Virus record (IMG/VR): IMGVR_UViG_2541047425_000011
Source of the DNA: a virus
Lineage: Duplodnaviria; Heunggongvirae; Uroviricota; Caudoviricetes
Reading direction: 5' to 3' (one strand)
Length of the DNA stretch: 4,793 nucleotides
Shown here: positions 1-4,793 of the stretch, piece by piece
How positions within the stretch are numbered: position 1 is the first letter of the stretch
Layout of the letters: the number at the start of each line of letters is the position of its first letter
Translations under genes and position numbers: made by a program
The notes under the pieces: generated by a model
Seen by the model: only the letters and a program-made list of their open reading frames with translations
Told to the model about the DNA's origin: nothing
Databases searched by the model: none

Positions 1-2015
1 CCGGTCAGCATCGCCGCCATATTCTGTGCAATACCGTCAAAGGTCTGCGTGGCAGCACTTTTAACCTGCGAAAAACTGTCCGTCGCACTTTCCGCCCACT
101 CGCCCCAGCCGGACTTCAGCCCGGCCATCCAGCTTCCACGAAGCTGCTCCTCCGCAGACCTGGTGTTCTTCAGTGCCGATGTGGCCTTCGCCAGCGCAGC
201 CGGATTATCACCGTACACGTCCCGAAGACGCTGCGCTTCAGACTCCCGCTGCGCCTGACGGTCAGTGAGACCGCGGGCTTTTGCGCTGATGGCGGCCTGC
301 TTCGCGCTCTGCTGCTCTTCAAACCGCACCGCCTGCTGTGCCAGCTCATTCAGGCGTTTCTGGTATTCAACCTTGTCGCCCAGCTCAGCCAGCTGGCGTT
401 TGTACTCCAGCGTCTCGTCTTTATGCGCCAGCAGGGATTTTTCCTGCTCAGATAACTGCCGTTTCGTGGCAGCCTCTTTCAGGACCGCATACTGATTTTC
501 CGCTTTCCATAAATCGCGACGCTGCTGGCTGATTTTCTCATTCGCACCGCTGTGTTTTTCCAGCGTCCTGAGCTCGGTTTCAAGCGCCAGCAGGGCAGCA
601 TGCGCCTGGTCTTCCTGACGATCGCCCGCAGACACCTTCACGCCGGACTGTTTCGGCTTTTTCAGCGTCGCTTCATAGTCCTTTTTCGCCGCCGCCATCA
701 GCGTGTTGTAATCTGCCTGCAGGATTTTCCCGTCTTTCAGTGCCTTATTCAGTTCTTCCTGACGGGCGGTATATTTCTCCAGCGGCGTCTGCAGGCGTTC
801 GTAAGCCTTCTGCGCCTCTTCGGTATATTTCAGCCGTGACGCTTCGGTATCGCTCTGTTGCTGCGCATTTTTGTCCTGTTGACTCTGCTGCTCAGCCTTC
901 TTTCGGGCGGCTTCAAGCGCAAGACGGGCCTTTTCACGATCATCCCAGTAACGCGCCCGCGCTTCATCGTTAACAAAATAATCATCCTTGCGCAGATTCC
1001 AGATATCGTCCGCTTTCTTAAACGCGGCCTCTGCCTTAATCAGCATCTCCTGCGCGGTATCAGGACGACCAATATCCAGCACCGCATCCCACATGGATTT
1101 GAATGCCCGTGCTGTCCTGTCTGCCCAGGTTTCCAGCGTGCCCATGTTCTCTTTCAGGCGGCGGGTCTGGTCATCAAACCCTTTCGTCGCGGCCTCGTTC
1201 GCCGCCTGCAATGCCCCGGCTTCTTCGCCGGAACGCTGCAACTGAGCAACATACGCAATCTGCTCCGCCGTCACGTTATGGAACTGGCGCGCCATCGCTG
1301 TCAGCCCCGACGTCGGGTCAGTGGTCAGCTTCCCGAAGGCTTCAGCGACCTTGTCCACCTCCACGCCTGATGCAGAGGAGAAACGCGCCACACTCTGGCT
1401 GATGGACGCAATCTGAGCCTCACCGCTTACCCCCGCCTTAACCAGTGCGCTGAGTGACTCGCTGGTCTGGTTAAACGTCAGCCCTGCCGCCTGCCCGGCT
1501 CTGGACAGGACCAGCATACGATCTGCCGTCAGCCCGGCCTGATTGCCGGAAAGGACCAGCGTTTTGTTGAAATCGGACAGGGTTGAGTTGCCCTGATACC
1601 AGGCATACGCCAGCGCACCGGTCGCCACCGCCAGCGAGGTGGCCCCCACCATCGGCAGGGTGATCGCACCGGCAAGCCCCCGGAACATGGGGATCATCCC
1701 GCCGAAGGAGTCCTTCACCTGCCCCCCCTGTTGCAGCAGGATCAGCCACGGACTTTGCCCACCTGCAAGCTGCGTGGCCACGTCAGTGAACTGCGCAGGC
1801 AGCATACGCATGGCGGCTTTATACTGCCCGACGGAAATTCCCGCTTTCTGTGCAGCCAGCGCCTGCCGGCTCATCGACTGTTCAACGACTGCCGCTGTTT
1901 TTTTCGCATCACTTTCCGTACCGGAAAAATGACGCCTGACTCTGGCCATCTGCTCGTCAAATCTGGCCGCATCCAGACTTAAATCAACGACCAGATCGCC
2001 TACCGGTTCAGCCAT
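1..2015 (-). CDS. H: Tail tape measure protein, lambda H-like; partial, N-terminal ~671 codons, C-terminal part lies beyond position 1
   Basis: ATG at 2015..2013 with a strong AGGAGG Shine-Dalgarno (plus-strand 2024..2029) 8 nt upstream. I hand-translated the minus strand at 2015..1621 (MAEPVGDLVVDLSLDAARFDEQMARVRRHFSGTESDAKKTAAVVEQSMSRQALAAQKAGISVGQYKAAMRMLPAQFTDVATQLAGGQSPWLILLQQGGQVKDSFGGMIPMFRGLAGAITLPMVGATSLAVA), around 1019..963 (KKADDIWNLRKDDYFVNDE), around 539..483 (EKISQQRRDLWKAENQYAV) and at 59..3 (SAATQTFDGIAQNMAAMLTG). All are in the same frame and match lambda gpH. It is absent from the track only because it has no stop inside the window. Confidence 0.9.
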   Translation of the reverse strand, partial: MAEPVGDLVVDLSLDAARFDEQMARVRRHFSGTESDAKKTAAVVEQSMSRQALAAQKAGISVGQYKAAMRMLPAQFTDVATQLAGGQSPWLILLQQGGQVKDSFGGMIPMFRGLAGAITLPMVGATSLAVATGALAYAWYQGNSTLSDFNKTLVLSGNQAGLTADRMLVLSRAGQAAGLTFNQTSESLSALVKAGVSGEAQIASISQSVARFSSASGVEVDKVAEAFGKLTTDPTSGLTAMARQFHNVTAEQIAYVAQLQRSGEEAGALQAANEAATKGFDDQTRRLKENMGTLETWADRTARAFKSMWDAVLDIGRPDTAQEMLIKAEAAFKKADDIWNLRKDDYFVNDEARARYWDDREKARLALEAARKKAEQQSQQDKNAQQQSDTEASRLKYTEEAQKAYERLQTPLEKYTARQEELNKALKDGKILQADYNTLMAAAKKDYEATLKKPKQSGVKVSAGDRQEDQAHAALLALETELRTLEKHSGANEKISQQRRDLWKAENQYAVLKEAATKRQLSEQEKSLLAHKDETLEYKRQLAELGDKVEYQKRLNELAQQAVRFEEQQSAKQAAISAKARGLTDRQAQRESEAQRLRDVYGDNPAALAKATSALKNTRSAEEQLRGSWMAGLKSGWGEWAESATDSFSQVKSAATQTFDGIAQNMAAMLT

Positions 2016-2846
2016 ACCGGACTCCTCCTGCGATCCCTTCTGATACTGTCATCAGCATTACGTCATCCTCCGTCATGTCCGCCACATCCGGGGAAGCGGG
2101 GATAACTTCATTCCCGTCCGGGCCAAAACGAACGCCTCCAGCAAGCCCTGCCGCTTTCTGCATCAGCACATCATCTTCAGGCTCTTCGTCAGCCTCACGC
2201 CGGTTCAGCAGACTGAAATCCAGCGGATGCATATCCGGATCGCTGAAAAACAGGCTGAGCACGGTGTACGTCAGCCCGGAAAAGTGCATATCCAGCAGAA
2301 CATCATGAAAATAATGGGTACTGTAAAAGCGGTGCCAGTCGGCATACTCCGTGGATGACATCCCGGCAAGCATGGCACGCCAGTCGGGTCGCCCCATCTC
2401 GCGCGCCAGTTTCAGGGCAAAACTCAGCTCACCGTCGAACACTTTCCCGCAGAAACAGGCTCTGCAGGCCCGGCGTCCTCTGCCTGTTCAGGGGCATCAT
2501 TCACCACAAACTCATACATACCGGACAGCCGGTACACCACGTTTTCAGCATGAGAAATTGCCTCCGCGGGCCAGGTGGTAAGCACTTCCTGCTCAATCTG
2601 TTTAACGGCTTCATTCATGGACGGCATCTGCGTCTTCTTCGGATGGTTATGCCACAGGGACATCGCCACCACAAAAGCGCCGGTTCTGATGGCGTCTTCC
2701 ACAGTAAACTTCCGGTTGCTGTCTGACTCCGCCTGTTCTGCCTGCCGTTTCATCAGGGCGAGATGCTCAATACGCTGCAGGGCTGACAGTTCAGAAAGCG
2801 TGACGGTCACGCCGTTATGTTCAAATGATTCGGTTTTCAGGAACAT
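2008..2846 (-). CDS. GT: Tail assembly chaperone G-T fusion, made by programmed -1 ribosomal frameshift at 2448..2442 (about 279 aa)
   Basis: The G frame reads GCG GGA AAG (A-G-K, codons 133-135) and ends 5 codons later. The -1 frame reads GGG AAA GTG TTC GAC… and stays open for 144 more codons (VFDGELSFALKLAREMGRPDWRAMLAGM…GIAGGVRYG) to a TGA at 2010..2008. The T frame has no ATG start with a ribosome-binding site of its own; the track's ORF 2008..2442 begins at GTG, which is the codon reached by the frameshift. This is the arrangement established for lambda G/GT. Confidence 0.88.
2024..2029 (-). promoter_or_regulatory. Shine-Dalgarno (AGGAGG) for H, embedded in the 3' end of the T coding region
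   Basis: Minus strand reads AGGAGG-AGTCCGGT-ATG. The 8-nt spacing to the H start codon is within the usual range. Confidence 0.7.
2424..2846 (-). CDS. G: Tail assembly chaperone, lambda G-like (140 aa)
   Basis: 140-aa minus-strand ORF (MFLKTESFEHNGVTVTLSELSALQRIEHLALMKRQAEQAESD…SAGKCSTVS) recognised as lambda gpG. ATG at 2846..2844 with GGAGAA Shine-Dalgarno 6 nt upstream (plus-strand TTCTCC 2854..2859). Stop TGA at 2426..2424. Confidence 0.93.
   Translation of the reverse strand: MFLKTESFEHNGVTVTLSELSALQRIEHLALMKRQAEQAESDSNRKFTVEDAIRTGAFVVAMSLWHNHPKKTQMPSMNEAVKQIEQEVLTTWPAEAISHAENVVYRLSGMYEFVVNDAPEQAEDAGPAEPVSAGKCSTVS
2442..2448 (-). other. -1 programmed ribosomal frameshift slippery heptamer G GGA AAG (plus-strand CTTTCCC)
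   Basis: Heptamer GGGAAAG read directly on the minus strand at 2448..2442, positioned 5 codons before the G stop and at the entry to the open T frame. It matches the X XXY YYZ slippery-site rule and the known lambda G-T site. Confidence 0.88.
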
Positions 2847-2861
2847 CGCTGATTCTCCGGA

Positions 2862-3602
2862 TTAACTGGCGGTGACGTTGATTTCTGCAACCGCAGCAAA
2901 CTCACCATTACCGGATACGACCGGAATGTTGACCTTGCCTGCAGCAACACCTTTCACGGTGATGGTCATACCACTGACCGACACGGTGGCTTTTGTTTTA
3001 TCCGCAGACACCGCACGGAAGCTCTTGTCGGTTGCGCCTTCCGGCTGGAATGCCACGGTCAGCGTCGTGCTCTGCCCTTTCACCACCGAGGTGCTGGCAG
3101 GCGTCACGGTCATGCCGGTTGCCGCTGTTACCGTGCTGCGATCTTCTGCCATCGACGGACGTCCCACGTTGGTGACTTTCACCGTGCGGGTGATCACTTC
3201 CTTCGCCGTCACCGCCTTACCGATACTGCTGACCCAGCCGCGGAACACATCGACCGTGCCGTTCGGGAAGCGGATTTTATAGGCACGGGTATCACCTTCA
3301 TTAAACCACGCCAGCAGCGCCTGCTGCCCCTGCTCTCCGGGCATCCACGCCAGCGTGAAGCTGGTATCTCCAGCGGATTTCTGCCCCTGTCCGGTCGCGG
3401 CCCAGTCCGCATCTTCATCATCGAGATAACTGTCGTCATAGGACTCAGCGGTCAGTTCGCCGGGCGTCAGGTCTTTAACCTTTGCCAGACGCGACCAGTC
3501 ATTGTCTGAAAGCGGGTTTGCATATGGGTCGCCGTTCCCGTTATAAACCCACAGTGTGGTCCCGGCCCCTTTCACCGGTGCCAGAGGATTTGGTGTTGGC
3601 AT
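2862..3602 (-). CDS. V: Major tail tube protein, lambda V-like (246 aa) with C-terminal Ig-like domain
   Basis: Minus-strand ORF recognised as lambda gpV (…[12 protein letters not shown]…DPYANPLSD…[24 protein letters not shown]…). The track begins the ORF at 3632 ([10 protein letters not shown]…), but that start lies inside U. I place the start at the internal ATG 3602..3600, which has a GAGGA Shine-Dalgarno 4 nt upstream (plus-strand TCCTC 3607..3611) and gives the 246-aa length expected for gpV. Stop TAA at 2864..2862. Confidence 0.9.
2865..3134 (-). other. Ig-like (Big_2-type) C-terminal domain of the V tail tube protein, about residues 157-246
   Basis: The C-terminal ~90 residues ([90 protein letters not shown]) have the alternating T/V/S beta-strand pattern of bacterial Ig-like domains. 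A C-terminal Ig-like domain is established for lambda gpV. Boundaries are approximate. Confidence 0.7.
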
Positions 3603-3609
3603 ATCGTCC

Positions 3610-4005
3610 TCACATTTCATAGGTAATGACATAAGTCAGATCGGCTGAACTCCACAGGCCCGCATCATCGTCGCGCCGGTAGTCATAGCCACTGGCCACC
3701 ATACTGGTGATCAAATCTGATAGTGCCGGGATATCGCTCATCACCGGATAAATCCGGGACTCCATCCACGCATCCAGCTCTGAATCCGGCACCTGAGCAG
3801 GCAGGAAAACTTCGATATGCAGCTCCGCCTGCCAGGTATCGCTGTCCAGCTCTTCGCCCGTGTATTCAGCGCCGGTGAGATAAACGGCAACTGCCGGAAA
3901 ATCCGCCTCATCAAAAACAGCGGGGCGACCATCAAAAAACGTCGCCCCGGTGTCATGCTTCTCCAGTGCATCCAGTACGGCTGCACGGAGTTCAGTATGT
4001 TTCAT
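3610..4005 (-). CDS. U: Tail terminator protein, lambda U-like (131 aa)
   Basis: 131-aa minus-strand ORF ([33 protein letters not shown]...LTYVITYEM) recognised as lambda gpU. Its ATG (4005..4003) overlaps the Z stop in an ATGA arrangement. Stop TGA at 3612..3610. Confidence 0.93.
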
Positions 4006-4580
4006 CGCTTTATTACCATTCTCAGTTGATGCTGCAGCGCATAGCCCAGCTCTTTCGGAAGACGTTCACGCCGTATCCGCTCAATATTCTGTTTAAACGC
4101 CGTGGTCAGCGGCACCGCCATCGGGATTTTCACCACATCAATGGGGTAACGGTTTTTCCCGGCCACACGCTGCATGACATGCCACCGGCCATTTTTCAGT
4201 TGCTGAATAAACGCGCCGGGAATACGACGGTTTCCCACCACAAGCACGCTGCCGCCACCTTTCAGGGATGAACGCTGCCCCTTTTTACGACGCCTGCGTC
4301 GGGACAGGACAACCCGCGCGTTACCCAGCTTGATTACGGGCAAATCCCCCCGGTTAACCTTGATTCTGGCCTGCGGATTTTTAACCGTGGCCCTTTTCAG
4401 CCTGGCCCTTTCCTTTACCAGTTTCCGGCGTACTCTTGTCTCACGGGCAACCTGTGACGCCGACTGCGATATCGCGGATGAAGCAACGCGGTTAATGGCC
4501 ATTGCTGACGCACCAGGCACCGCCGTTTTGCTGATACGACTGAGGTTTTCAACGGCCTGCTCAAGACCTTTTATGGCCAT
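4002..4580 (-). CDS. Z: Tail completion protein, lambda Z-like (192 aa)
   Basis: 192-aa minus-strand ORF (MAIKGLEQAVENLSRISKTAV...[15 protein letters not shown]) recognised as lambda gpZ. ATG at 4580..4578 is preceded by a G-rich Shine-Dalgarno (GGGGGG, plus-strand 4585..4590 as CCCCCC). Stop TGA at 4004..4002 overlaps the U start. Confidence 0.93.
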   Translation of the reverse strand: MAIKGLEQAVENLSRISKTAVPGASAMAINRVASSAISQSASQVARETRVRRKLVKERARLKRATVKNPQARIKVNRGDLPVIKLGNARVVLSRRRRRKKGQRSSLKGGGSVLVVGNRRIPGAFIQQLKNGRWHVMQRVAGKNRYPIDVVKIPMAVPLTTAFKQNIERIRRERLPKELGYALQHQLRMVIKR

Positions 4581-4591
4581 ACATCCCCCCT

Positions 4592-4793
4592 TCAGCGACG
4601 ACGGTTAACGGCAGGCGGTACGCCCCGCCCAAGCCAGAGATGACAGCTTCCGCCATCATCCGTCGAAATCCGGTCTATCCAGAAGTTTTCCTCACCGATG
4701 GTCAGCGTGTCTCCACGCCGCAGTTGCCGCACATCATCAGTCCGGACAAACAGGGACGGGCTGGAGCCTTCAACACGCACGCCCTGTCCGGCA
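4592..4793 (-). CDS. FII: Head-tail joining protein, lambda FII-like; partial, N-terminal part lies beyond the window end
   Basis: Minus-strand reading frame open from the window edge to a TGA at 4594..4592. The track fragment (MRVEGSSPSLFVRTDDVRQLRRGDTLTIGEENFW...GRGVPPAVNRRR) matches the C-terminal part of lambda gpFII as I recall it. It sits directly upstream of Z, as in lambda. Confidence 0.85.
   Translation of the reverse strand, partial: AGQGVRVEGSSPSLFVRTDDVRQLRRGDTLTIGEENFWIDRISTDDGGSCHLWLGRGVPPAVNRRR

Follow-up and report, generated by a model that had tools for sequence, protein, structure and literature searches.

The C-terminal Big_2 Ig-like domain of the tail tube protein V in a lambda-like tail gene block is of the well-studied lambda type

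Introduction

The minus strand of a 4,793-base stretch of DNA, referred to here as the window, encodes a protein V whose last 90 residues (positions 2865-3134) were originally predicted to form an Ig-like decoration domain on a phage tail tube. The question raised by this locus is whether the segment is indeed such a domain and, if so, what role it would have on the tail. About 70% of the tube proteins of enterobacterial siphophages carry an Ig-like domain, and its role is unclear (PMC9022992).

In phage lambda, the tail tube protein gpV is divided into an N-terminal domain (residues 3-156) that builds the hexameric rings of the tube and a C-terminal domain, gpV-C (residues 157-246) (PMC10721106). 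The work of Pell et al. 2010, as summarized in the review PMC8718954, describes gpV-C as a canonical Ig-like sandwich with two sheets of four strands each, whose conserved residues lie at the proximal and distal ends; when gpV-C was removed, tails were still formed and the biological activity was reduced 100-fold. This review also places gpV-C parallel to the tube axis, touching loop beta1-beta2 of the subunit next to it. A map at 6 Å showed three protrusions per ring, each of which fits two copies of the gpV-C structure 2L04 from neighbouring subunits, and at higher resolution the gpV-C protrusions blur, being flexible (PMC10721106). In Ur-lambda, Ig-like domains in three helical arrangements were described on the tube surface (PMC12617516). 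Adhesion of gpV-C to carbohydrates "remains to be experimentally verified" (PMC8718954).

Results

The window was found to be colinear with positions 7764-12556 of lambda NC_001416, without indels and at 94.7% identity, and the lambda gene annotation carries over to it base for base. It holds a minus-strand tail-gene block in the order FII'-Z-U-V-G-T-H', belonging to a lambda-like siphophage or prophage. Based on this colinearity, the genes are a partial H (1-2015), T (2008-2442), G (2424-2846), V (2862-3602, corresponding to 8955-9695 in lambda), U (3610-4005), Z (4002-4580) and a partial FII (4592-4793), all on the minus strand. As in lambda gpV-type systems, both the Z-U-V-G-T-H neighbourhood and the G/GT frameshift site are present. 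The heptamer of the lambda G/GT -1 frameshift, GGGAAAG, occurs once, at 2442-2448 on the minus strand, in the frame G GGA AAG and close to the end of G, in its overlap with the T frame. By itself the heptamer is statistically unremarkable, with at least one copy in 117 of 200 shuffles. An Rfam scan of the whole window detected no RNA family above threshold.

The nearest sequenced phage is PhiR26_1, with 95.9% identity to the window overall, and among complete E. coli genomes O157:H7 strains come nearest, with prophages that are 97.1% identical. A copy of the block, covered for at least 80%, was detected in 3,683 of the 5,426 complete E. coli genomes (~68%). Divergence within the window is by far the highest in a mosaic segment of the tape measure gene H at positions 1-600 (minus strand). 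Its identity is only 69-80%, to lambda as well as to PhiR26_1, and it is mostly because of this patch that PhiR26_1 and the best O157 prophage differ from the window outside V. The remainder of H within the window is 96-99% identical to lambda and PhiR26_1. In several O157:H7 genomes (H26-H29, for example NZ_CP038372.1 at 3207386-3214584) the corresponding block is in two pieces that together extend over 7.2 kb, and within it, adjoining the tape measure gene, the annotation shows a group II intron reverse transcriptase/maturase (ltrA). The record MW057783.1, named 'Campylobacter phage CJLB-4', matches the block at 7683-12475, equals lambda in identity and score and uses the lambda gene names; this entry, filed under a Campylobacter jejuni phage, is apparently a lambda sequence that was mislabelled or came from contamination.

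Gene V, encoding the major tail (tail tube) protein, occupies 2862-3602 on the minus strand, as indicated by its open reading frame and by lambda colinearity, and specifies 246 residues followed by a stop codon at 2862-2864. The accepted start is the ATG at 3600-3602, which is preceded at a distance of 4 nucleotides by a Shine-Dalgarno-like GAGGA (3607-3611, minus strand) that overlaps the stop codon of U. The mechanical list of open reading frames contained a 256-residue frame at 2862-3632 (minus strand), and a V of that length, starting at the upstream ATG, is also found in the old J02459 annotation. This longer form was rejected on the basis of the position of the Shine-Dalgarno sequence, of RefSeq and of the sequences in the PDB. 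An antisense open reading frame of 136 codons at 2872-3282 (plus strand) was rejected as a gene as well, as the opposite strand carries the strongly supported gene V and nothing favours the antisense frame.

The promoter scan of 2700-3300 returned no promoter-like sites. In the same region three terminator-like hairpins were found against 0.7 expected, all of them antisense to the late operon and inside coding sequence. One of these, with a T-run, lies at 2971-2989 on the plus strand, followed by CTTTTGTTTT, antisense to V and within the part that encodes the Ig-like domain. Since coding constrains the sequence, we take these three hairpins to be probably due to chance.

Within V, the tube-forming N-terminal domain comprises residues 1-156 (3135-3602, minus strand; PMC10721106, PMC8718954). 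Residues 18-152 match Phage_TTP_12 (PF16461) with 235 bits against a cutoff of 26.1 (E=2.3e-70), and the domain matches PDB 2K4Q and 7T2E with E<1e-96. About residues 147-156 (3135-3164, minus strand) form a flexible linker between the domains; it was recognized by a pLDDT below 50 in the structure model and by an abrupt change of identity among the relatives of V. The Ig-like domain at the C terminus, gpV-C, comprises residues 157-246 (2865-3134, minus strand), as delimited by the Big_2 match, the structure 2L04 and an eight-strand model. The coordinates proposed for this domain proved exact in the 246-residue numbering, with residue 246 encoded by 2865-2867 and residue 157 by 3132-3134. In a phmmer search of the PDB with full-length V, 6P3E, 7T4F and 9MFE were matched with E of about 1e-152, and the lambda gpV structures 8IYD and 8IYK were matched as well.

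The C-terminal segment had been described as rich in T, V, S and G, and these residues indeed make up 52% of positions 157-246 compared to 32% of positions 1-156. The prediction of a Big_2-type Ig-like domain was likewise borne out, both by the profile search and by the fold that it had named as checks. The 90 residues alone matched Big_2 (PF02368), whose gathering cutoff is 22.8, with 76.1 bits and E=2e-21, and the match takes in positions 2-78 of the 79 in the profile. The core of the match is formed by residues 161-240 (2883-3122, minus strand), which is the best stretch, 5-84, of the 90-residue query; within full-length V the score was 72 bits for residues 161-239. The NMR structure solved for the Ig-like domain at the C terminus of lambda gpV (PDB 2L04) matched residues 158-246 with E=3.4e-43 and 97% identity.

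We used AlphaFold2 with a 30-sequence alignment to build a model of full-length V. In this model the C-terminal domain has pLDDT values of 77-97 in blocks of ten residues and eight beta strands (residues 163-167, 170-174, 178-186, 195-197, 205-210, 213-218, 222-230 and 236-244), whereas linker residues 147-156 fall below 50. Using Foldseek, the model superposed as a beta-sandwich on 2L04 with a target-normalised TM score of 0.84. For the Big_2 domains of 7QUZ and 7R3T, which are unrelated, the rmsd was 1.4-1.6 Å over 86-89 columns. A single-sequence AlphaFold2 model of the 90-residue domain had low confidence (pLDDT 60.8), yet was all-beta; it was left out of the fold comparison. Superposition of the whole chain on cryo-EM gpV gave an rmsd of 17-19 Å, with a model pTM of 0.48, because the inter-domain orientation and loops 1-12, 44-78 and 147-156 are not predicted. 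As the orientation of the domains is unreliable in the full model, only the matches per domain are meaningful. Together, the positions 2865-3134 on the minus strand are confirmed as a real Big_2 Ig-like gpV-C domain, which is ordinary, already known and of the well-studied lambda type.

Compared to lambda gpV, 34 codons of V differ, and 10 of these differences are replacements, leaving 236 of 246 residues identical (96%). The comparison with lambda that had been proposed for the Ig-like segment yielded three substitutions, V190A, N217K and T242N, with 87 of 90 residues identical. Codon 190 (3033-3035, minus strand) is GCA for Ala instead of GTA for Val in lambda and lies in the B-C loop, with strand 178-186 before it and strand 195-197 after it. 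Ala occupies this position in 28 of the 29 cluster representatives, so that Val190 of lambda is the outlier and the residue in the window the common one. Codon 217 (2952-2954, minus strand), AAA for Lys instead of AAC for Asn, encodes the last-but-one residue of its strand, before the turn at the invariant G218; the representatives carry K (18), N (8) or T (3). Codon 242 (2877-2879, minus strand), AAC for Asn instead of ACC for Thr, lies in the final strand, and the representatives have T (22), N (6) or A (1). The alternation of polar and hydrophobic residues in E-I-N-V-T suggests that the side chain of residue 242 faces outward. From secondary structure and side-chain alternation we infer that residues 190, 217 and 242 would all be exposed.

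The other seven replacements, V3T, T7L, M8A, K21N, S23N, V34N and T68A, are in the N-terminal domain, six of them within residues 1-34. For codons 1-34, dN was 0.152 and dS 0.51 (omega 0.298); for codons 35-156 these values were 0.0036 and 0.127 (omega 0.028), and for the N-terminal domain as a whole (codons 1-156) 0.033 and 0.20 (omega 0.164). The Ig-like domain (codons 157-246) had a dN of 0.015 and a dS of 0.105 (omega 0.146). Both values are below those of the whole N-terminal domain, and dN is lower still only in codons 35-156. The N-terminal arm of V (about 3500-3602, minus strand, codons 1-34), with six of the ten replacements, is the variable part in comparison to lambda, and not the Ig-like domain. 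In comparison to a Stx2a phage, dN was 0.27 and dS 2.27 for the C-terminal domain (omega 0.12, a rough value as this dS is saturated), and 0.09 and 0.99 for the N-terminal domain (omega 0.09). With an omega of about 0.12-0.15, the Ig-like domain is subject to purifying selection, as is the N-terminal domain.

The allele itself is common. Its protein is identical to V of PhiR26_1 (XSB42110.1), with one synonymous difference in the gene; several O157:H7 chromosomes carry the 741-base gene without any difference (100% identity), and 315 E. coli records match it at 99% or more. In complete E. coli genomes, V is present in about 7,000 copies altogether. The V allele of the window is known from a sequenced phage as well as from many O157:H7 prophages, and it contains nothing new.

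In the wider family the picture is different. Among the 120 best homologues listed, Big_2 was present in all except one truncated entry, and no other Ig family was found to replace it. The identities of the two domains to the window V are uncoupled among homologues: the N- and C-terminal domains are 95.5% and 67.8% identical in P0054 and 93.5% and 54.5% in P0111, while in P0032 they are 87.8% and 98.9%. Mean column entropy was 0.83 bits for the C-terminal and 0.34 for the N-terminal domain (Mann-Whitney p=6e-10); the representatives were hand-picked, and these values are indicative and no population estimate.

At the nucleotide level, identity to the window switches abruptly at the inter-domain linker of V in three related loci. 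In L007 it is 98.5% in U, 94.9% in the N-terminal part of V, 64.4% in the C-terminal part and 76.8% in G; the corresponding values are 85.6%, 82.9%, 93.0% and 98.1% in L005 (E. albertii) and 59.6%, 89.7%, 59.3% and 61.5% in L006. The C-terminal domain follows the downstream G rather than the N-terminal domain in L005 and L007. The linker is clearly a mosaic junction across the relatives of V. Just upstream of it, about codons 107-156 are 87-97% identical in L005, L006 and L007, and this conserved stretch would supply the homology for crossovers at the linker. The higher dN of the C-terminal domain against the Stx2a phage is accompanied by a higher dS (2.27 compared to 0.99), which points to older alleles that were swapped in and not to diversifying selection. 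The extra divergence of the C-terminal domain thus looks like the result of recombination of older alleles under continuing purifying selection. It had been expected that any variation of V relevant to host range would lie in the Ig-like domain. For variation as such, this holds at the level of the family, given the entropy values and the mosaic junctions at the linker; it does not hold for the window in comparison to lambda, where there are three replacements in the 90 residues of the Ig-like domain (dN 0.015) and seven in the 156 of the N-terminal domain, six of them in residues 1-34 (dN 0.15).

Some longer tail tube homologues of E. coli (P0001-P0003, P0009 and P0004, the last with 401 residues, six members and a 22.7-kb contig) have two matches each to Phage_TTP_12 and Big_2, and in a BLAST comparison these longer homologues have two Big_2-like stretches after the tube domain. 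The longer homologues on short contigs may be assembly artefacts. In Escherichia phage vB_EcoM_swi3 (Rosemountvirus), the 212-residue 'hypothetical protein' QNR52378.1 is made up of two Big_2 domains; its gene, at 2617-3255 of the locus L004, comes directly after that of a tail protein. The second of these domains shares 45% identity with gpV-C. Ig-like domains of this kind are therefore found in another protein context.

Discussion

In the present study, V of the window was compared with several known tube proteins. Lambda gpV (2L04; full-length 6P3E, 7T4F and 8IYD/8IYK) resembles it in gene position and length, without indels, and in the combination of Phage_TTP_12 and Big_2. V of PhiR26_1 and of the O157:H7 prophages is the same protein as in the window, and these phages differ outside V. 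The tail core V of phage YDC107 (PDB 9MFE, E=5e-152) shares T3, L7, N23 and A190 with the window; however, it has 245 residues with one residue of the N-terminal arm deleted, carries S171A and A200S, and has N217 and T242 as in lambda. The Big_2 domain of T5 pb6 (PDB 5NGJ), the Big_1 domain of YSD1, the FN3 domain of SPP1 and the I-set domain of HK97 are, like gpV-C, surface-exposed Ig-like additions at the C terminus of a siphophage tube protein. However, the sequence identity of T5 pb6 and other such tube decorations to the domain of the window is only 10-11%. Moreover, T5 pb6 differs from V by a duplicated tube domain, trimeric rings and an Ig-like domain orthogonal to the tube axis, and the SPP1 domain differs from gpV-C in being added by a frameshift and dispensable (PMC8718954).

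The 96-97% identity to lambda gpV in its cryo-EM structures, together with the published descriptions, suggests that gpV-C of the window would sit on the outer face of the tube once this is assembled. In the mechanism that we propose by analogy, the N-terminal domain of V (residues 1-156) would polymerize into hexameric rings and thereby form the tube around the tape measure protein. The short flexible linker would place the beta-sandwich of about 90 residues on the outer surface, with six copies per ring in about 31-32 rings. If V behaves as lambda gpV, with which it shares 96% identity, neighbouring gpV-C domains would pair to give three protrusions per ring and so a loose surface lattice. 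This lattice would not be needed for tail formation, and virions that lack it would be expected to be about 100-fold less active. An added weak binding of cell-surface glycans is plausible. Surface display, pairing and the loss-of-function phenotype would thus apply to this allele as they do to lambda. The claim that the domain is dispensable for assembly can be kept in part: tails form without gpV-C, but according to the passages of PMC8718954 on lambda the activity then falls about 100-fold. With a probability of roughly 95%, we regard 2865-3134 on the minus strand as the gpV-C Big_2 Ig-like domain of a lambda-like tail tube protein V that would act by this mechanism.

What the domain contributes to the virion can be read in several ways. 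A view of the T/V/S/G-rich end of V as a passenger, low in complexity or vestigial, with neither a fold nor a function of its own, might seem to fit its biased composition (52% T+V+S+G) and the tails still made with truncated gpV (as summarized for lambda in PMC8718954). This reading has practically no chance of being correct and is refuted by the Big_2 match (E=2e-21), the solved structure 2L04 at 97% identity, the confident eight-strand model, the Foldseek superposition, an omega of about 0.15 and the retention of the domain in all but one truncated entry of the 120 best homologues listed. A purely structural role, in which gpV-C would stabilize or assemble the tube by intra-ring contacts and a surface lattice and would make no contact with the host, deserves more weight, and we consider it possible, though somewhat improbable in this exclusive form. 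The 100-fold loss of activity upon deletion with tails still made, and the contact within the ring to the neighbour's loop beta1-beta2, both reported in the lambda passages of PMC8718954, agree with it, as do the pairing of gpV-C with two copies per protrusion (PMC10721106), the ordered helical arrangements (PMC12617516) and the purifying selection. However, the density of the domain is weak and flexible (PMC10721106, PMC9022992), and other siphophages lose their Ig domain without a phenotype (PMC8718954). Furthermore, relatives in which C-terminal domains of 54-70% identity stand behind N-terminal domains of 93-96% imply that any interface between the two cannot be very specific.

Weak adhesion to carbohydrates on the cell surface has been the general hypothesis for Ig-like domains of phages (Fraser et al. 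2006, in the form in which PMC10721106 and PMC9022992 cite it). Applied to V, gpV-C would be mainly an accessory adhesin, of which about 190 copies per tail weakly bind LPS, O-antigen or capsule, and allelic variation would tune host range or adsorption rate. Across the family, V varies more in its C-terminal than in its N-terminal domain (entropy 0.83 compared to 0.34), and whole alleles of the C-terminal domain are exchanged at the linker, as this reading would have it. However, the omega of the domain (0.12-0.15) is no higher than that of the N-terminal domain (0.09-0.16), giving no sign of diversifying selection, and its greater amino acid divergence is paired with a higher dS (2.27 compared to 0.99), which points to older alleles acquired by recombination. 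The window allele is only three residues away from that of lambda, where gpV-C is oriented in parallel with the tube and contacts the next subunit (lambda passages of PMC8718954), and the same review describes adhesion as still to be verified by experiment. A main role as an adhesin is for these reasons unlikely. Even less probable, and in our opinion a speculative extension, is that the linker is a preferred junction at which whole gpV-C alleles travel with the downstream G/T chaperone genes, with classes of about 97%, 70% and 55% identity to the allele of the window that would match either host surface glycans or chaperone partners. If this were true, the type of C-terminal allele would predict adsorption behaviour or prophage compatibility, and the window would carry a lambda-class allele. 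We favour the reading that gpV-C is a surface decoration that probably improves the assembly or stability of the tail and hence infectivity, with accessory adhesion as a possible addition.

The choice between adhesion and stabilization is a long-recognized question, on which the window gives no special handle. The lambda domain has been structurally characterized since 2010 and several cryo-EM structures are available, and beyond a correct annotation the finding matters little. Its modest by-products are the variation of the N-terminal arm of V in comparison to lambda, the unusual Val190 of lambda and the mosaic junction at the linker between the two domains of V.
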